Of a stretch of DNA of 64,000 nt, positions 1,334 through 36,632 are shown piece by piece. Both the position numbers and the translations under genes were made by a program. How positions within the stretch are numbered: position 1 is the first letter of the stretch; every line of letters starts with the position of its first letter. The notes beneath the pieces are model-generated. The model was not told where the DNA came from. It saw only the letters and a program-made list of their open reading frames with translations, and made no database searches. Source of the DNA: Candidatus Saccharimonadales bacterium (GTDB taxonomy: Bacteria; Patescibacteriota; Saccharimonadia; UBA4664; SCTI01); contig DATIII010000002.1 in NCBI GenBank assembly GCA_035479795.1, positions 7 to 64,006 of the forward strand. The letters are read 5' to 3'.

Positions 1334-1421
1334 CTCCTCTCTATGTGAAGAGAGGGTGTCAAAGGGCTTAAACGCTACCGAGTATACCAGATATGGCCGG
1401 TGACCGTTATAATCAGATCTG

Positions 1422-1988
1422 ATGAAACGCTACCGATATCGCCGAATTTCAATTTGGACGCTAATTATCGCCATCTTGACCTTGCTGGGAGCCGGAGTCA
1501 CCCAAAAAGGGCAGGTAGTACTGCCGACTCTTTCGTCACAACCGGGTTTTTACCCAGTGACGCACGTGACTGATGGCGATACCATTGAGGTCAATTTAGC
1601 TGGGAAAAATGAGATCGTAAGGCTCATTGGGATCGACACGCCGGAGGAAAAAGATCCACGCAAGCCGGTTCAATGCTATGCCTTGGCCGCTGCCCAGCAT
1701 ATGCAGCAGCTAGCGGGAGACAAGAGTGTGCGCTTGGAAGCCGACCCGGATACCAGCGACCGTGATAAATATAACCGGCTACTTCGCTACGTCTATCTAT
1801 CCGACGGTACCTTTGTAAACCAGGCTCAAGTTCAGCAGGGCTACGGCTTTGCTTACACCATTTTCCCAAACTCCAAATTAGATCAGTTTCGAGCCTGGGA
1901 GCGCGAAGCCCGGGGGGCTAATCGTGGCCTGTGGGCCGGCTGCCAAATTCACTCCGAAGGTGAGAAAGAACAAACTAACGACCAATGA
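1422..1988 (+). CDS. Thermonuclease (staphylococcal nuclease / SNase homologue) with an N-terminal membrane anchor
   Basis: Motifs HVTDGDTIEV, RLIGIDTPEE and RLLRYVYL...GLW match the SNase fold and its Ca-binding residues. A transmembrane segment is at residues 10-28. Confidence 0.8.
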   Translation: MKRYRYRRISIWTLIIAILTLLGAGVTQKGQVVLPTLSSQPGFYPVTHVTDGDTIEVNLAGKNEIVRLIGIDTPEEKDPRKPVQCYALAAAQHMQQLAGDKSVRLEADPDTSDRDKYNRLLRYVYLSDGTFVNQAQVQQGYGFAYTIFPNSKLDQFRAWEREARGANRGLWAGCQIHSEGEKEQTNDQ

Positions 1989-3288: not shown

Positions 3289-3591
3289 TCAGACTCGAGA
3301 CCTGGTCGCACCAAGGGCGGCAAGGGGCCCGCCCCAGCGCCGAAGATGATCGCGGGTCCTGTTGTAGAGGCGATCTTCAAGATCGCTGTCGGGTCGCTGC
3401 GACTCCTTTTCGAAGCGTTTGAGCGCCAACCCGGGGTTGTCGCCGGAGCTGACCATCCAGCTCACCGCCTCGAACTCGCCGGTCTCGCGGTCGTTGTGCG
3501 GATGACCGCTGGCTGCCTCGTATCGCTCTTTGGCTTCGGGGTAGGAGTTGCCCCGGCCGCGGAACAGGCCCATCGCACGCTTGAGCATCAA
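3289..3591 (-). CDS. Hypothetical small Ala/Glu-rich acidic protein (100 aa)
   Basis: Strong SD AAGGGAG 5 nt upstream of the ATG. A terminator lies downstream. It is convergent with the 2492-3189 operon. No family recognised. Confidence 0.5.
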   Translation of the reverse strand: MMLKRAMGLFRGRGNSYPEAKERYEAASGHPHNDRETGEFEAVSWMVSSGDNPGLALKRFEKESQRPDSDLEDRLYNRTRDHLRRWGGPLAALGATRSRV

Positions 3592-3652
3592 TGCTCCCTT
3601 CTTTCGGAGTGAACGTGCTTATGCCAAAAATACTCCCGCCACTTATTGGTTG

Positions 3653-4912
3653 TCAACCAATAATAAATAGGCGATTTTCGGCACGAGTTACGGCTGTATA
3701 GAGCCAGCGGCGCCAGTCTTCATCGCTCATATGCTTGTTACGCTCTTCAAACACAATCACCGTATCAGCCGACGATCCTTGGGCTTTGTGAACGGTCAGG
3801 GCATAGGCGAAGTCAAACAAGTCACCTTTAATTTTTTTATCAGGTGTCTTCGGTAATTCTTTAACTGTTTCGCGGGCCCCAAATTGTTCACGCAGTAGCA
3901 AACCTTCATACTCAAAATCATCGATTTTTAAGCCCACCTGCCACCACTTCTCCTCATCGTCAGCCTCGGCCTTGTTTATCCAGCGCACCGAACCAGTCAT
4001 GCCGTTGTACAGCTTGGCCCGACTATTATTGCGTAGACAGACAACATGATCGCCTGACACTGGATCGGCTGACTCAAACCCCATGCGGCCGCGTAGCGAC
4101 TCATTGAGCCGGACTCGAGTGTGGTTGTAGCCACACAACACCAGCCAATCCGGCCGCCACTGCTCGAGCAGCTCATCCATGACCACGCCAATATCATCCG
4201 CCCCACGATCAATCTTAATAACTTCGCTGCCATAGCTGCCAGCCGGAATCTCTCCGGTAGTGCGGGCCAATGTAGCTGCTTGCACGATCCCTGAGCCTGC
4301 AGCCTGTCGATAAACCGCTTCCAGACGCAGCTGCGGATCGGCCATCAGATTAAAGCTAGATCCAACAGGCGGCAGTTGGCCATGATCGCCAACCGCTAGA
4401 ATCGGAATGCCAAATGACAACAGGTCCTTCCAAATATCGGCGGTAACCATACTAGCCTCATCGACGATTATCAGATCAAATTCTAGCTCTTTCTTTTTGC
4501 GCCAACCGGTAATCCGGCCGCCGGAGTCGGTTTCGGTATGGTAGATCAGGCCATGAATGGTCGATATATTGTCAGACTTTTTGGCAATGCGATGGCTCTT
4601 TAGAGTCTTTTCCAGCACCCGCACGGCCTTACCGGTATAGGCACAAAAGGCGACCTTGGCATCCGGATCGTTCTGACGCAGCGCCTGGCGAACATAGGCT
4701 ATCAAGGTAGTTTTGCCCGTACCAGCGTACCCACCCAGCGTTATAAATGGCTCAGATTTGGTTCGGTACCACCGGCCAATTGTCTGGAGGGCTTCAATCT
4801 GTTGTCTTGATAACTCGTAACTCACAAAGCCAAGTGTACCAAACTCCAGCATCCAAAAAATCCAGACATTTTGCGCCAGGGCGTTGGAATTAGTGCTAAT
4901 GCTGAGTATCAA
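3653..4912 (-). CDS. SF1B ATP-dependent DNA helicase, phage T4 Dda/RecD-like (AAA_30 + UvrD_C_2 architecture)
   Basis: Walker A GGYAGTGKTT, Walker B IIVDEASMV, and motifs ILAVGDHGQLPPV and YALTVHKAQGSSADTV...YTAVTRA. Length about 420 aa, like Dda. Start is TTG at 4912 or an internal ATG. Confidence 0.8.
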   Translation of the reverse strand: MILSISTNSNALAQNVWIFWMLEFGTLGFVSYELSRQQIEALQTIGRWYRTKSEPFITLGGYAGTGKTTLIAYVRQALRQNDPDAKVAFCAYTGKAVRVLEKTLKSHRIAKKSDNISTIHGLIYHTETDSGGRITGWRKKKELEFDLIIVDEASMVTADIWKDLLSFGIPILAVGDHGQLPPVGSSFNLMADPQLRLEAVYRQAAGSGIVQAATLARTTGEIPAGSYGSEVIKIDRGADDIGVVMDELLEQWRPDWLVLCGYNHTRVRLNESLRGRMGFESADPVSGDHVVCLRNNSRAKLYNGMTGSVRWINKAEADDEEKWWQVGLKIDDFEYEGLLLREQFGARETVKELPKTPDKKIKGDLFDFAYALTVHKAQGSSADTVIVFEERNKHMSDEDWRRWLYTAVTRAENRLFIIG

Positions 4913-8732: not shown

Positions 8733-9758
8733 ATGAGCGAAGCCAAAATAGTCCATTTTCCGCACCACAAACGATCCGATTCTGCTAATAATCCGGATGC
8801 GGCCGAACACGCCCGAGCTCGGATCGCGGCTTTGCCCGATCAATACGCTAGCCACGCATCACCTCGCCCGGATCTGGCACGCAAAATCCCCCCCGCCAGC
8901 CCAGCCGCCCAAGATCAGCCACTCAGCTCGGAGATACCAGGTATCGATGATCTTACCGAAATCGGCCGCCAGCTAAAGGGTGGAAATTCACAAGAAGCTC
9001 CAGAAGGCCAGCCGTCAGAAAGCCCACAGGAAACGACAACTAAAAAACGTCGTTTACCAAGCCAGGCTAAGCCCCTGATTTCCGCGGCAGTTACCTTTGT
9101 CATTATCTTTATGGTTTTTAAGGCGCCTATCTTTCTGACCCAGCTGAGTTACGCCACCCAGAAACCTCCGGTAACCGCGCCTTCCAATAACTCTACTGCC
9201 GTTGGCCCCGACCCGGTGATCGATATTGCTAAAATCAACGTCCACGCGCCAATCGCCTTTGCGCACAGCAATACCGAAAGTGATATTCAAAAAGATCTCG
9301 AAGGGGGAGTGGTGCACTATGCCAACACGGCCCTTCCCGGGACCACCGGCAACAGCGTCATCTTTGGACACTCATCAAACGACTGGTGGGAGCCGGGAAA
9401 TTACAAGTTCGTCTTTGTGTTATTAGACAAACTAGCAGTGGGTGATACCTTTACAATCAATTACAACTCAAAGCAGTATCTTTACAAAGTTGCCGAAGTG
9501 AAGGTTGTCGAGCCCACGGATCTGAGCGTACTCAACCAAACCTCTGACGCCGAAGTAACCTTGATCACCTGCACTCCACCAGGTACCAGCTGGAAACGCT
9601 TAATCGTTCGTGCCAACCAAACCACACCGGTAACCCAAAAATCGGCTCCGGTCCAGCCGGAAAAGCACGGCATTTTGCCAAGTAACGCCCCCGGCATTGT
9701 AGACAGCCTCGGCCGCCTGTGGAACAGCGTGGTTAACTTGTTCTCAACCGATAAGTAG
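8733..9758 (+). CDS. Sortase-family transpeptidase with a Pro-rich N-terminal region and a transmembrane anchor
   Basis: Catalytic region FGHSS...TLITCTP (TLxTC motif) with the conserved His. N-terminal transmembrane segment. Confidence 0.7.
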   Translation: MSEAKIVHFPHHKRSDSANNPDAAEHARARIAALPDQYASHASPRPDLARKIPPASPAAQDQPLSSEIPGIDDLTEIGRQLKGGNSQEAPEGQPSESPQETTTKKRRLPSQAKPLISAAVTFVIIFMVFKAPIFLTQLSYATQKPPVTAPSNNSTAVGPDPVIDIAKINVHAPIAFAHSNTESDIQKDLEGGVVHYANTALPGTTGNSVIFGHSSNDWWEPGNYKFVFVLLDKLAVGDTFTINYNSKQYLYKVAEVKVVEPTDLSVLNQTSDAEVTLITCTPPGTSWKRLIVRANQTTPVTQKSAPVQPEKHGILPSNAPGIVDSLGRLWNSVVNLFSTDK

Positions 9759-32268: not shown

Positions 32269-32766
32269 CTACGAGCCGGGAGCCTCCTTGACGCTAGCAG
32301 GAACATCCTGAGGACTCTGGAAGGCCGGACCGTGAGTCGCCGCCCACCAGGTGCATCCACGAGGCCAGGGCTTGGGCCGCTTGCCCTCACGAACCTGGGT
32401 AACCAGGCGAGAGCACTTCTTGGCCGAAAGCCGGGTGATGGTTTCGCTGCCGCTGACGGCCGCGATCCGGCAATGCCTTGGCAGGCTACCCACGTCAAAC
32501 CCCGTTGCGGAGCTACCCAGAGGCTTTGCCTTCTTGCATGAGTCAAGGAAGGGGATGTCCCTCCTGAACTCAGCCACCTTGCTGCGCTGAACGCAGTAGA
32601 TCGTGTCATCGACCTGGATCGAGACACAGCCAGAGGCCGTTGTGGGTGCCTGTGCCGGCTGAGCTGCCGTCTGCCGATCAGAAGAACCACAGGCGGAGAC
32701 GAGGAGAGCGAGGACCAACCCCGCCATAATCGTCGTGAAACGAATGATGCGGGCGAAGTGGCCCAT
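32269..32766 (-). CDS. Cys-rich putative lipoprotein (165 aa), high-GC
   Basis: Signal peptide with lipobox LVSAC and 8 Cys residues. No family recognised. Consensus promoter upstream. Confidence 0.5.
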   Translation of the reverse strand: MGHFARIIRFTTIMAGLVLALLVSACGSSDRQTAAQPAQAPTTASGCVSIQVDDTIYCVQRSKVAEFRRDIPFLDSCKKAKPLGSSATGFDVGSLPRHCRIAAVSGSETITRLSAKKCSRLVTQVREGKRPKPWPRGCTWWAATHGPAFQSPQDVPASVKEAPGS

Positions 32767-32883
32767 GATTACCGTCCAAGGGTGAGTAGTGTTTTCAAAT
32801 TCCTGGACCAGGATGCGATTTGCTCGCTTCCTGGTTGAGAACCTGACCCTACAAAGTGCGTCTCACCTCTGAGATTGTTAACT

Positions 32884-32912
32884 ATAATAGCATAGTGGTT
32901 ACGTTTTGTCAA
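32884..32912 (-). promoter_or_regulatory. Consensus sigma70-type promoter cassette (TTGACA-17-TGcTATTAT) for 32269-32766
   Basis: Minus-strand -35 TTGACA (plus 32907-32912), 17-bp spacer, -10 TATTAT (plus 32884-32889) with TG at -15/-14. Confidence 0.6.
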
Positions 32913-32936
32913 GAAGATCCAATTTTCTAGACATGG

Positions 32937-32960
32937 AAAAGCCGGCCGCGAACGACCGGC
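32937..32960 (-). terminator. Intrinsic terminator downstream of minus-strand gene 32980-33528
   Basis: Stem GCCGG(32941-32945)/CCGGC(32956-32960). On the minus strand it is followed by UUUU. Confidence 0.5.
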
Positions 32961-32979
32961 TAAACCAGAACTTCAACTT

Positions 32980-33528
32980 CTACTTCTTGAGATGGCAACC
33001 TTTGGGCCGTACCACCTTGCCGACGTATGGCTTGTTCTTAGGAGTTGGGCGCATGTACTCGCGCCACTCCGAACACGTCAACTTCACGATGCGAACCGGG
33101 CCTTTCTTCATCGGATACGGGTTCGCCTTCTGCCGTAGCTCCGGGCAGTCCTCGTAGAGGTGGGGCGGGTCCGCCTCGGGGTTCTTCGGCACTGGAGATT
33201 CTTGCTCCTGCTCGTAGGCCTTGCAGTCGACCTTGGGCCGCTGCTTCGGGATCTTGCAGTAGTCGAACGGCTCACCATCGGGGCTGGTCTGACCATTGGG
33301 GTCTTCGGCCCCCAAGGGGCTGTTCGACTCGTAGCCGGGCTGCCTGCTGTAATACTGTTGATCCTTAACCCACCACTTGGGCGGATCGCACTTCTGGACG
33401 AAGGCCTGCGGCTCCGAGTAGTCGGGAAAATCCCGGTCGTACTGGATCTGCTGGCCAATGACCATGCCGACCAGGAGAGCAACAAGACCGCAAACGACAG
33501 CAGCCCAAACGACGTCGGACTTCTTCAT
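32980..33528 (-). CDS. Membrane-anchored Cys/Pro-rich secreted protein (182 aa), high-GC
   Basis: N-terminal transmembrane anchor. SD GGGAGGG. 8 Cys residues, Pro/Lys-rich. No family recognised. Confidence 0.5.
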   Translation of the reverse strand: MKKSDVVWAAVVCGLVALLVGMVIGQQIQYDRDFPDYSEPQAFVQKCDPPKWWVKDQQYYSRQPGYESNSPLGAEDPNGQTSPDGEPFDYCKIPKQRPKVDCKAYEQEQESPVPKNPEADPPHLYEDCPELRQKANPYPMKKGPVRIVKLTCSEWREYMRPTPKNKPYVGKVVRPKGCHLKK

Positions 33529-33591
33529 GACACCCTCCCGGGTAGTAGACAGATTGTGTATGTTCTGGACCGGTAAAAACCGATAAGTACT

Positions 33592-33620
33592 ATAATAGCA
33601 TTATTCTTATGTTTTGTCAA
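33592..33620 (-). promoter_or_regulatory. Consensus promoter cassette (TTGACA-17-TGcTATTAT) for 32980-33528
   Basis: Minus-strand -35 (plus 33615-33620), 17-bp spacer, -10 (plus 33592-33597). Near-identical to the cassette at 32884-32912. Confidence 0.6.
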
Positions 33621-34022
33621 TATATATGCAGGATAGGACTAGACTTAAATATCCTTCGACGTAGTTTGCCCTGAGCGAAGCCGAAGGGCTGAAGCCGAAG
33701 GGCTCAGGATGACAAATCCGACAAGTAGTCTAGATATAAATAAAACCCCATGCAAGGGACAGGGTGGCCTGCCACGGGCATCGGGTTTTATTGCACCCTC
33801 CAATACCTGCCCAGGGGCATTTTCGCGATCTGGCAAATGTGAGGAGATCGGGTATTCGAGGGACTGAACTACCTGCTGGCGAATCTAAAGGAGGGTGCAT
33901 TCAGACTCCCCTAGCAGGCAGGTCAGTAGGGTTTACTGGTTGAAAGTACCACCTCAAAAAGGTATGATTGGGATAGTAACATTAAATGTTATAAATGTCA
34001 ATCGAATTTATGTAAACTGACT

Positions 34023-34874
34023 GTGCAACCCTCTAAAATTACTTATGCTAATTCCCAATATCCAGATGCGCTTCGTGAGATAGCGGCGGCCCCGAAGCAG
34101 CTTTACGTACTGGGTGACTTGAAGGCCGGGCCGTTGGTCGCGGTTGTCGGGTCACGCCGCCCTACAGATTATGGCAAACAGGTGACCCATCAGTTGGCAA
34201 CCGACTTGGCCCGAGCCGGGGTGGGGATTGTATCTGGGCTGGCCCTGGGTATTGATACGATAGCTCATCAAGCGGCTGTGGAGGCCGGGGGTTATACCAT
34301 TGCCGTCCAAGGTAATGGGCTTGATAAGGTCTACCCTCATAGTAATCGCGGATTAGGCATTAAGATTCTTGAATCAGGCGGAGCCATTATTAGCGAATAC
34401 GACCCGGGTATGCCGGCTTTAAAACAGAACTTTCCAGCCCGCAACCGCATTATTTCGGGCTTAAGTTTGGCGGTGATTGTGACCGAAGCGGATGCCTCCA
34501 GCGGCTCGCTGATTACTGCCAATTTTGCGGTTCAGCAGAACCGGCAGGTTTTAGCAGTACCGGGCAACATTACCAGCCAGCGCTCGGCCGGACCAAATAA
34601 CCTGCTTAAACTCGGCGCCATACCAGTCACCAGCGCCAGCGATGTGCTGGCCGCGCTCGACCTGGAATCCCGGGCCTTAAAGGCTCGGCCAGCCATTGCA
34701 CAGAGTGCTGAGGAGGCCAAGTTACTCGAACTTATGGATACTGGCACCACCCAAAGCCAGCAACTGATTGAAGGCGCTGATATGACGGCAAGTCAGTTTG
34801 CCTACGTGATTAGCTTGATGGAGATCACCGGCAAGGTGCGCAACCTAGGCGCCGGTATTTGGGTGCGCCGCTAG
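34023..34874 (+). CDS. dprA: DNA processing protein A (DprA/Smf)
   Basis: Rossmann-like core VAVVGSRRPTDYG...GVGIVSGLALGIDTIAHQAAV. GTG start. Confidence 0.85.
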   Translation: MQPSKITYANSQYPDALREIAAAPKQLYVLGDLKAGPLVAVVGSRRPTDYGKQVTHQLATDLARAGVGIVSGLALGIDTIAHQAAVEAGGYTIAVQGNGLDKVYPHSNRGLGIKILESGGAIISEYDPGMPALKQNFPARNRIISGLSLAVIVTEADASSGSLITANFAVQQNRQVLAVPGNITSQRSAGPNNLLKLGAIPVTSASDVLAALDLESRALKARPAIAQSAEEAKLLELMDTGTTQSQQLIEGADMTASQFAYVISLMEITGKVRNLGAGIWVRR

Positions 34875-36533: not shown

Positions 36534-36580
36534 GGGTTTCCTTTCGTAGTAGGGGCTACCTCAAAAAAGGCATGAGTACT

Positions 36581-36609
36581 AGAATAGCATAAGAAGCTTA
36601 TTTTGTCAA
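36581..36609 (-). promoter_or_regulatory. Consensus promoter cassette (TTGACA-17-TGcTATTCT) for 36021-36533
   Basis: Minus-strand -35 (plus 36604-36609), 17-bp spacer, -10 (plus 36581-36586). Confidence 0.55.
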
Positions 36610-36632
36610 GATTCTAACAGATGGGATATAAT
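36603..36632 (+). promoter_or_regulatory. Divergent plus-strand promoter TTGTCA-18-TATAAT for the dihydrouridine synthase gene, sharing its -35 region with the minus-strand cassette
   Basis: TTGTCA at 36603-36608, TATAAT at 36627-36632 overlapping the ORF-track ATG. The first ATG after it is 36643. Confidence 0.45.

Follow-up and report, generated by a model that had tools for sequence, protein, structure and literature searches.

Our analysis indicates that the 494-nt spacer between the divergent genes dprA and a 182-aa gene, in a window of 64,000 nucleotides from a Saccharibacteria (CPR) genome, very probably holds a structurally conserved RNA gene on the minus strand, reading away from dprA. 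The explanation that we favor, with a probability of roughly 0.6, is that of a structured small RNA, about 230 nt long and encoded by an independent gene with a strong promoter, which is conserved across Saccharibacteria and may pair with Shine-Dalgarno sequences. The initial annotation had already suggested an independently terminated small RNA at this place, and to this extent it is supported by a promoter of its own, a terminator and a conserved structure; the strand, the boundaries and the helices, however, had to be revised. The signals and parts of the locus are as follows, where the transcript ends are inferred from the signals, the 5' end being placed 7 nt past the -10 box and the 3' end inside the U-tail.

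34001..33973, minus strand: RNA promoter, with -35 box TTGACA (34001..33996), 17-nt spacer, extended -10 TG and -10 box TACTAT (33978..33973)
about 33966..33736, minus strand: inferred whole transcript of about 230 nt, from consensus signals
33928..33966, minus strand: variable 5' segment, with a small hairpin ACCUU/GAGGU at about 33963..33951
33863..33927, minus strand: P2, a long irregular hairpin that contains the CCTGCT/AGCAGG pairing
33890..33899, minus strand: apical loop L2, UGCACCCUCC, with ACCCUCC at 33896..33890
33796..33862, minus strand: multi-branch P3 domain, closed by the helix of CCCUCGAAUACC (33862..33851) with GGUAUUGGAGGG (33807..33796)
33850..33826, minus strand: hairpin P3a, enclosed by the P3 closing helix
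33819..33808, minus strand: hairpin P3b, enclosed by the P3 closing helix
33736..33792, minus strand: intrinsic terminator, a 21-bp hairpin (33792..33739) with apical CCAC(CC), followed by UUUUAUUUAU (33745..33736)
34023, plus strand: start codon of dprA, one flank of the spacer
33528..32980, minus strand: 182-aa gene, downstream of the RNA gene
33592..33620, minus strand: promoter of the 182-aa gene, TTGACA-17-TATTAT with TG, separate from the RNA promoter
33538..33531, minus strand: Shine-Dalgarno (SD) sequence of the 182-aa gene, GGAGGGUG, a perfect complement of loop L2

The promoter of the RNA is near-consensus and of sigma-70 type, scoring 10/12 plus the TG, and its -35 box lies only 21 nt from the dprA start codon in the window. 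At the other end, the initial annotation had described a 12-bp stem. The hairpin at 33739-33792 is indeed there, but in place of 12 perfect pairs the stem comprises 11 Watson-Crick pairs together with a single mismatch, which is C.C when read on the plus strand and G.G on the minus strand, and it forms part of the 21-bp hairpin, which has 25-nt arms that are 80% complementary and an energy of -27.5 kcal/mol. With regard to the bidirectional terminator that the initial annotation read here, the hairpin is flanked by an A-tract and a T-tract, with UUUUAUUUAU as its tail on the minus strand and only UUUUAUUG on the plus strand. Since both flanking genes diverge from the spacer, the hairpin can terminate neither dprA nor the other gene; in the window it faces no converging plus-strand gene, and in relatives pth is such a gene. 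The minus-strand RNA has a minimum free energy of -93.9 kcal/mol (z = -5.99 against dinucleotide shuffles), and its predicted fold consists of three independent domains in series, with 5' and 3' ends that do not pair with each other, an A-rich linker between the P3 domain and the terminator hairpin, and the terminator itself as the 3' end. The plus-strand segment that holds the palindromic element of the initial annotation together with the terminator reaches only z = -2.75, mostly due to the terminator.

The structure is borne out by covariation across related spacers, a check already proposed in the initial annotation. In an alignment of 13 related sequences, where compensatory counts were set against shuffles and slid controls, 24 of the 38 consensus pairs show compensatory changes, and the paired positions are conserved in the minus-strand RNA: 92.3% of cells are paired, against 32-47% in the slid controls, and none of 500 shuffles attains the observed value on any covariation measure. 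P2 (alignment helices 1 and 2) contributes 19 pairs, with 89-95% of cells paired and compensatory changes in 11 of the pairs, and the P3 domain (alignment helices 3-5) another 19, of which 13 have compensatory changes. The helices are not quite those proposed at first. CCTGCT (33873-33878) and AGCAGG (33913-33918) do pair, as parts of the long hairpin 33863-33927, but AGCAGG lies outside the region enclosed by the 9-bp long-range pair, which was thought to enclose both. The arms of that 9-bp pair, GCACCCTCC (33793-33801) and GGAGGGTGC (33890-33898), are perfectly complementary; yet we reject it as a conserved helix, since it is pairable in 85% of cells with zero covariation. It sets loop L2 against the 3' strand of the covarying P3, and thus competes with P3, and where the 3' strand of P3 changes it is the 5' strand of P3 that compensates and not the loop. 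No consensus fold was found for the 5' 45 nt across 9 homologs.

Could the structured element instead belong to the other strand, or code for a protein? The initial annotation had offered a riboswitch-like element ahead of dprA, and in favor of a plus-strand riboswitch-like or otherwise structured leader controlling dprA, the region does lie directly upstream of this gene and is highly structured. However, promoter and terminator U-tail are antisense to such a leader, G.U pairs outnumber A.C mismatches by 31 to 8 when the alignment is read on the minus strand, and our covariance model R1 scores 143 bits on the minus strand at 33786-33935, its only match in the window, against 21 bits on the plus strand. 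Moreover, read on the plus strand, the terminator would come first in the element, at its 5' end and 230 nt ahead of dprA, no expression platform lies near the dprA start codon, and no riboswitch family matches in Rfam, so that we consider a leader highly improbable. Hardly any more credible is a small protein gene, for instance the 56-aa ORF 33900..33730, whose AUG lies in the loop, or another of the ORFs (52-63 aa). The spacer is overlapped by four ORFs of at least 50 aa, rather than the single one noted initially, and their coding readings were rejected for want of a Pfam match and of conservation. The loop ORF does have its ATG in the conserved loop with GGGGAG before it, and its frame stays open in the window as well as in L015, L016 and L018. 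But its start codon is absent in 4 of 12 homologs and its frame ends after 4-25 codons in 8 of 12 (the length to the first stop ranging from 4 to more than 56 codons), the frames are not conserved, and the substitutions are compensatory for base pairing and not codon-like.

All 18 related Saccharibacteria dprA loci for which upstream sequence was available carry the RNA directly upstream of dprA, in divergent orientation, the listed loci being L001-L006, L012, L014-L018 and L022-L026; the homolog L020 was retrieved by a DNA pattern and is left out of this list of dprA contexts. Since sampling proceeded by dprA-linked loci, with all homologs except L020 and L022 retrieved through dprA, the impression that the RNA always lies next to dprA is partly an ascertainment effect. 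The linkage nevertheless persists where the opposite flank changes, the far-side neighbor being variously pth, a methyltransferase, TrmB or a hypothetical gene, and it spans DprA identities from 84% down to 46%. The RNA occurs in three lineages and falls into three size classes of about 200-360 nt with the same core in every class, where peripheral helices expand and P3 acquires elaborate inserts; the 5' segment takes insertions of about 120-130 nt in L012 and L018. Nucleotide identity of the core is 67-84%, against 65-70% for dprA DNA. The promoter recurs as TTGACA-17-TAnnnT with TG, at an exact 17-nt spacing, in 14 of 16 homologous loci, the remaining two having mis-set dprA starts; across these 14 loci it lies -1 to 62 nt from the dprA start, overlapping the start codon in L017. 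Terminator hairpin and U-run are present in all 17 homologs, and the following gene is convergent in L001, L014, L016-L018 and L023-L025; co-directional following genes, where present, have their own promoter. Beyond these lineages, dprA loci of other Patescibacteria (L007-L010) gave no convincing homolog (covariance-model E-value 0.09 or worse), and a scan of viral contigs for the loop and the start of P3 gave 0 hits. A pattern scan of metagenomes returned four loci, of which L020 and L022 are true homologs and L019 and L021 were discarded as chance matches.

Part of the initially proposed element turns out to lie outside the RNA. The palindrome of the initial annotation consists of

33639..33733: palindromic spacer element, an outer 7-bp inverted repeat and an inner 7-bp hairpin
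33639-33645 and 33727-33733: outer inverted repeat, CTAGACT/AGTCTAG
33670-33676 and 33702-33708: inner 7-bp hairpin, CCTGAGC/GCTCAGG
33677..33704: perfect tandem duplication of 14 nt, GAAGCCGAAGGGCT x2

The outer repeat, the inner hairpin and the perfect duplication in its loop were all correctly described, and we add that the final GCT of the second copy doubles as part of the inner hairpin arm and that the element is flanked by imperfect 13-nt direct repeats, CTAGACTTAAATA and CTAGATATAAATA. But the element is no part of the RNA: it sits downstream of the RNA terminator, between it and the promoter of the next gene, and has no counterpart in the homologous loci. In a comparison for MITE- or REP-like repeat elements it was single copy within the 64-kb window. 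It is a non-conserved palindromic spacer element unrelated to the RNA. The 14-nt tandem duplication, moreover, is private to the window copy. Compared with the window, the public GenBank record of the same contig (L027; 5852 nt compared) and an independent assembly (L028; 2326 nt) show 0 mismatches each, and the sole difference of both is one 14-nt copy fewer. The second copy may reflect a polymorphism in the population, or else an artefact of assembly or editing.

Does the RNA belong to a known family? An Infernal/Rfam scan, suggested in the initial annotation, covered the window, 20 loci and the large L004 variant, at gathering and at permissive thresholds (E up to 10). At gathering thresholds none of the 4227 families of Rfam 15 matched the RNA in the spacer or in the 20 loci, and the matches elsewhere in the window are tRNAs only. 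At E up to 10 the window spacer matches only GadY (E = 0.77) and gut-2 (E = 9.5), which we dismiss, together with ctRNA_pGA1 and Ysr197, as chance-level; the likeness to GadY (RF00122) lies in an alignment through a terminator-like hairpin with a U-tail and, at 17.4 bits against a gathering score of 45, does not amount to membership. The identities RNase P, SRP, tmRNA and 6S were rejected, since they have no Rfam matches and their signature motifs are absent by eye, and they are disfavored further because in a complete Nanosynbacter genome PGAP already recognizes 2 ncRNAs (PMC8830319). Searches of the literature on small and noncoding RNAs of Saccharibacteria and Patescibacteria and on dprA-associated RNA motifs yielded no description of this RNA. 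Judged by its sequence, and with no Rfam match, it is a previously undescribed family.

How could such an RNA act? The ACCCUCC of loop L2 is invariant in 13 of the 13 aligned sequences, is present too in L002-L006 and L012, and resembles the 16S anti-Shine-Dalgarno core CACCUCC. The apical loop of the terminator carries (A/C)CCACC in 12 of 17 homologs, the motif missing in the other five, and reads CCACCUCC in L020, L022 and L025. C-rich motifs are thus predicted in the apical loops of P2 (in all homologs) and of the terminator (in those 12). We propose that these two exposed loops copy the 16S anti-SD core and act as seeds that would pair in trans with the G-rich SD regions of mRNAs, blocking ribosome loading on the targets. 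This mechanism, predicted in silico, we put forward tentatively, as somewhat short of even odds. The best non-self duplex of L2 in the 64 kb falls on the SD and start region of the 182-aa gene, at -20.2 kcal/mol with 8 contiguous pairs. This gene, however, counts little as a target, since any anti-SD-like sequence finds SD sites, and it is lineage-specific and absent from most relatives; the second-best match, at 9295, was discarded because it lies inside a sortase-like ORF and not at a ribosome-binding site. As L2 can also pair with the 3' strand of P3, the loop might not be free in some conformers, and a transient conformer with loop/P3 pairing might exist as an alternative. Finally, since the RNA promoter lies 0-60 nt from the dprA start codon, transcription of the RNA is probably also coupled to dprA initiation.

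RNAs that work in this way are known. The 3' hairpins of S. aureus RNAIII (H7, H13 and the terminator hairpin H14), RsaE/RoxS and the actinobacterial 6C RNA are SD-targeting RNAs with C-rich loops, and their loops, like the anti-SD elements of the streptococcal csRNAs, pair with SD regions and block ribosome loading. The dprA-side RNA resembles RNAIII, RsaE/RoxS and 6C in that it forms an independent gene, equipped with a promoter and an intrinsic terminator of its own, and in its apical C-rich motifs, terminator loop included, which are complementary to GGAGG-type ribosome-binding sites. It shares with them, however, no homology of sequence or structure, as Rfam, which includes these families, matches none of them at E up to 10, so that the resemblance is one of working rather than of membership; it is also larger (200-360 nt), has a multi-branch P3 domain, comes from another phylum (CPR), and has targets that are predicted only. 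The csRNAs, which are cia-dependent and about 90-150 nt long, repress competence in that an anti-SD element, placed in an unpaired stretch between two stem-loops, pairs with the SD and AUG of comC. The likeness here is an anti-SD-like CCUCC element and a genomic and possibly functional link to natural competence. In contrast to the csRNAs, to which it is not homologous, the dprA-side RNA carries the element in the apical loop of a long hairpin, and its link to competence consists only in gene adjacency to dprA. The raiA motif RNA, of about 200 nt, occurs in Firmicutes and Actinobacteria, often beside comFC and raiA. With it and with 6S the present RNA has in common that it is conserved and structured, about 200 nt in size and of unknown or global function, and with the raiA motif the proximity to a competence gene, but neither gives an Rfam match; the 6S RNA moreover differs in its rod with a large central bubble, whereas here the 5' and 3' ends do not pair with each other and RF00013 does not match.

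Two other explanations of the same gene deserve weight beside a small RNA that pairs with SD regions. The loops and P3 could be recognition surfaces for a protein rather than mRNA seeds, the RNA then having a protein-binding or structural housekeeping role, for instance as an RNP scaffold or as a sequestering RNA like 6S or CsrB. We think this rather unlikely, though several points speak for it: the occurrence is phylum-wide with a near-consensus promoter, the 7-nt loop is invariant over deep divergence, and the size classes combine a constant core with expanding peripheral helices. Indeed, a length of 200-360 nt and elaborate P3 inserts are seen more typically in protein-binding or catalytic RNAs than in simple seed-pairing small RNAs, and as PGAP finds only 2 ncRNAs in the complete Nanosynbacter genome (PMC8830319), housekeeping RNAs could be unrecognized. 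However, no candidate partner protein is co-located, dprA being the only conserved neighbor with a variable flank on the other side, the predicted fold shows neither the 6S rod with central bubble nor the GGA-loop arrays of CsrB, and no match to 6S appears in Rfam at E up to 10. A little less likely again is a cis-acting partner of dprA, whose strong, back-to-back promoter would occlude or couple dprA initiation or whose RNA would be antisense to the dprA 5' UTR. The -35 box at -1 to 62 nt from the dprA start in 14 loci and the linkage that survives a change of the other flank speak for it. At the homologous loci the short gap contains neither an SD nor a conserved promoter for dprA, so that the dprA promoter must overlap the promoter or the 5' region of the RNA, and in the window a plus-strand TTGAAA-17-TATGAT (33940-33968) abuts the RNA -10 box. 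Yet promoter interplay alone leaves unexplained the strong covariation and the invariant loop, about 70-230 nt from the promoter; the 5' segment, which lies closest to dprA, is the least conserved part and takes the 120-nt insertions; and no conserved plus-strand dprA promoter was found within the RNA gene at the homologous loci. The antisense route would have the dprA 5' UTR start inside the RNA gene. A cis role is compatible with an additional function in trans.

More speculative is an extension of the SD-pairing small RNA that we favor, to which we assign about the same low likelihood as to the cis-acting partner: a phylum-wide anti-SD mimic which, as a highly expressed structured RNA with two copies of the core of the 16S 3' tail in exposed loops, would titrate or repress SD-led mRNAs globally, or would serve as a master riboregulator wired to dprA through the shared divergent promoter region.

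The genomes of Saccharibacteria and other CPR bacteria are tiny, their intergenic regions very short and their known regulators few. A TM7x transcriptome preprint reports no validated small RNAs in Saccharibacteria (10.1101/2022.03.25.485537), and PGAP annotates only 2 ncRNAs in the complete Nanosynbacter genome (PMC8830319). It is unlikely that such streamlined genomes could dispense with an RNA of about 200-360 nt that is kept in three lineages, with a near-consensus promoter, an invariant loop and a fixed place beside dprA. Natural transformation occurs in Saccharibacteria, and cultivated strains are now open to engineering (PMC10633639), so that the RNA gene could be deleted, or its loop mutated, directly, and a role in translation control, competence or the epibiotic lifestyle is testable. 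For RNA databases it represents a new family, with the covariance model R1 for its annotation. If the reading as an anti-Shine-Dalgarno mimic were true, this would be the first RNA of CPR/Patescibacteria to be defined as a functional regulator.

Our comparison of homologous loci shows that the minus strand of the spacer beside dprA carries a transcription unit that is conserved, structured and non-coding. The genome belongs to the Saccharibacteria (TM7, CPR/Patescibacteria); its DprA has a 100% identical counterpart in a 'Candidatus Saccharimonadales' MAG, and the closest DprA relatives are Saccharibacteria throughout. Both flanking genes diverge from the spacer, and therefore the large hairpin within it terminates neither of them. 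The genes and promoters are as follows.

34023-34874, plus strand: dprA (Pfam DNA_processg_A, E = 3e-73)
33529-34022: intergenic spacer of 494 nt between the divergent 182-aa ORF and dprA
33528..32980, minus strand: 182-aa ORF, no Pfam match
34001..33973, minus strand: near-consensus RNA promoter, TTGACA-17-TACTAT with extended -10 TG
33620..33592, minus strand: promoter of the 182-aa gene, TTGACA-17-TATTAT with TG, the second minus-strand promoter in the spacer

Read along the minus strand, the RNA promoter is followed by a folded stretch of ~230 nt (-93.9 kcal/mol, z = -6.0 versus shuffled sequence), whose 3' end is a terminator hairpin and then UUUUAUUUAU. The hairpin at 33739-33792 has arms of 25 nt; the initial annotation's 12-bp stem contains one mismatch and is part of a longer 21-bp hairpin. 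G.U pairs number 31 on this strand against 8 A.C mismatches, and the covariance model R1 gives 143 bits for the minus strand versus 21 bits for the plus strand and finds one copy only in the window. Promoter, U-tail, G.U excess and model score together fix the RNA as antisense-divergent to dprA, and a dprA leader or riboswitch on the sense strand, such as the riboswitch-like element suggested earlier, is thereby excluded. The initial annotation did pick out a real hotspot. Its other suggestion, an independently terminated sRNA, was half right: the RNA has its own gene, but its strand, boundaries and helices had been misjudged, and the palindromic repeat cluster assigned to it lies elsewhere.

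The core alignment (A2, 13 sequences) gives a consensus of five helices, all on the minus strand.

33927..33863: P2 long hairpin
33899..33890: 10-nt loop of the P2 apical extension
33862..33851 with 33807..33796: P3 closing helix
33850..33826: P3a
33819..33808: P3b

Covariation across the homologous spacers, the check that had been proposed, was found: compensatory double changes occur in 24 of the 38 consensus pairs, and the paired share of cells is 92.3%, which falls to 32-47% if partners are shifted by 1-3 columns; none of 500 column shuffles comes up to the observed values. The 5' 45 nt are variable, with no consensus fold found across homologs, and insertions of ~120-130 nt are tolerated in the 5' segment (L012, L018). 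The reported perfect 9-bp complementarity does exist, between 33793-33801 and 33890-33898; on the RNA strand it sets the apical loop GCACCCUCC against the P3 3' strand (GGAGGGUGC). This pairing is possible in 85% of cells across homologs, with zero covariation. Only one position of the P3 3' strand varies often, with A for G in six sequences; the compensating change there, C to U, is in the P3 5' strand and not in the loop, and thus P3 is the supported helix; the loop pairing may occur as a transient alternative conformer. The CCTGCT/AGCAGG pairing had been placed inside the 9-bp pair, but the AGCAGG partner lies outside it, at 33913-33918.

Loci were drawn from GTDB genomes, contigs with DprA homologues and a metagenome pattern scan. 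In every Saccharibacterial locus having upstream sequence the RNA stands directly upstream of dprA in the same orientation, a linkage to be read in the light of all homologs except L020 and L022 (from the pattern scan) having been retrieved via dprA. The window's size class comprises 13 loci (L001, L012, L014-L018, L020, L022-L026), four others (L002-L005; DprA identity 46-51%) carry a ~330-360-nt version that shares the P2 apical hairpin, P3 closing helix and terminator, and L006 has a third architecture. A TTGACA-17-TAnnnT promoter with TG is present in 14 of 16 loci, its -35 box lying at -1 to 62 nt from the first codon of dprA. On the far side the neighbour may be pth, a methyltransferase, TrmB or a hypothetical gene, and therefore the retained linkage is to dprA. 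Nucleotide conservation of the RNA core (67-84% identity) equals or exceeds that of dprA (65-70%). In the more distant Patescibacteria dprA loci L007-L010 we found no convincing RNA homolog.

The larger RNAs lie on the minus strand at L002:1192-1520, L003:3587-3945, L004:3594-3946 and L005:3594-3946, and that of L006 at about 1350-1612 (minus, ~260 nt); these variants have added branches within P3, and additional single-stranded C-rich motifs occur in them, for example ACACCCC close to the 5' end. Upstream of dprA in the non-Saccharibacteria L008 (~1650-1850) and L010 (~3550-3750) there is a repeated palindrome, GGGGTCTTGACCCCGTTAGAAGTC / ACTTCTAACGGGGTTGACA, on the strand opposite dprA and containing a -35-like TTGAC; in L008 it is followed by a promoter and an RNA-like stretch whose loop reads UUCCUCC.

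A protein-coding reading of the spacer was rejected, since start and stop positions are not conserved and Pfam gives no match. Where the initial annotation counted a single ORF, we count four (50 aa or longer) overlapping the spacer, none with a Pfam match; of 12 homologs, 4 have no start codon for the ORF that begins at the loop AUG, and in 8 it stops after 4-25 codons. The Rfam scan proposed earlier was run but returned no family: Rfam 15 at gathering thresholds, over the window and 20 loci, gave no match to the spacer RNA, and chance-level matches only at E up to 10. We found no description of a dprA-adjacent Saccharibacteria RNA in the literature, and a TM7x transcriptome preprint (10.1101/2022.03.25.485537) states that no small RNAs have been validated in Saccharibacteria.

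The repeats reported by the initial annotation are all present: CTAGACT 33639-33645 / AGTCTAG 33727-33733, the inner hairpin CCTGAGC 33670-33676 / GCTCAGG 33702-33708, and the tandem duplication GAAGCCGAAGGGCT x2 at 33677-33704. This cluster lies beyond the RNA terminator and before the promoter of the 182-aa gene, and is thus outside the transcript. It occurs once in the window, and none of the homologous loci has a counterpart of it; 13-nt imperfect direct repeats on both sides, together with two neighbouring lineage-specific minus-strand ORFs, suggest an insertion scar or small palindromic element. The duplicated unit itself occurs once in the GenBank record of the window contig (L027, GCA_964594805.1) and in an independent Logan assembly (L028, SRR9179559).

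33677-33704 (window), compared with L027:1992-2510 and L028:190-715: 14-nt duplication

Aligned over 5852 nt to L027 and over 2326 nt to L028, the window shows 0 mismatches, and in each case a single 14-nt gap is the only difference. This makes the duplication an assembly difference, an edit or a variant private to the window, and not something conserved. GC-rich, palindrome-rich inserts of ~120-130 nt occur in the RNA 5' part in L012 (about 100-230, RNA strand) and L018 (2320-2440), and similar segments just past the terminators of L014 (about 2560-2690) and L023 (about 1000-1200), for example GTCATTGCGAGCGAAGCGCGGCAAT / GTCATCCTGA...GAAGGATC. These segments resemble small mobile palindromic elements and are possibly related to the window's repeat cluster (minus-strand GTCATCCTGAGC).

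Between pth and the RNA gene lie a 165-aa and the 182-aa ORF (minus strand, 32269-33528; no Pfam match), apparently a lineage-specific insertion because pth directly abuts the RNA terminator in L001, L016-L018 and L023-L025; L015 has other ORFs there. Near-duplicate promoters (TTGACA-17-TATTAT with TG; 33592-33620 and 32884-32912; 84% identity over 32 nt) precede the 182-aa and 165-aa ORFs respectively, and a third, weaker look-alike stands at 36564-36612, ahead of the gene at 36631.

How might such an RNA act? The P2 loop carries ACCCUCC without change in 13/13 aligned sequences and also in L002-L006 and L012, and in 12 of 17 homologs the apical loop of the terminator has (A/C)CCACC (CCACCUCC in L020, L022 and L025). 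The anti-Shine-Dalgarno core of 16S rRNA is CACCUCC, which both motifs resemble. The C-rich loops, exposed by prediction, could act as seeds by pairing with G-rich ribosome-binding sites, which would repress translation. C-rich seeds act on ribosome-binding sites in RNAIII hairpins (terminator hairpin included), RsaE/RoxS, 6C and csRNAs; we liken our RNA to these in proposed working mode only, as the Rfam scan places it in none of these families. GGAGGGTG occurs three times in the 64-kb window, as the Shine-Dalgarno of the 182-aa gene, in the P3 strand of the RNA itself and as the loop complement, and in a duplex scan of the 64 kb the top non-self loop site is the ribosome-binding site of the 182-aa gene (-20.2 kcal/mol). 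This agrees with Shine-Dalgarno targeting but is weak evidence, since any anti-Shine-Dalgarno-like sequence finds Shine-Dalgarnos and the gene is lineage-specific. The second-ranked target, inside a coding region, was set aside.

Terminator-loop motifs are CCCACCCC in L002-L005 and CCCCC in L006. The opening dprA codons GTG CAA CCC TCT AAA (34023-34040) are similar to the RNA loop (UGCACCCUCCUUUA) in sense orientation, probably by coincidence; the similarity is not kept in L001.

Local promoter competition or antisense overlap with dprA is plausible as a second or alternative role, because no conserved dprA promoter fits the 0-60-nt gap to the RNA promoter; the tight head-to-head layout and a dprA without a Shine-Dalgarno sequence point the same way. 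In the window dprA starts with GTG, and no Shine-Dalgarno is present at 34000-34025 or at the homologous positions in 14 loci; the dprA mRNA may lack a leader, or its transcription may begin within the RNA gene or run through it. Natural competence of Saccharibacteria involves ComEC, ComF and DprA (PMC10633639). The RNA may also have a protein-binding structural role, to which the size variation and elaborate P3 inserts would be suited.

The spacer thus holds a new, well-supported ncRNA family of Saccharibacteria, whose invariant loop is anti-Shine-Dalgarno-like and whose place next to dprA is fixed. Saccharibacteria can now be manipulated genetically and have no characterised regulatory RNAs.
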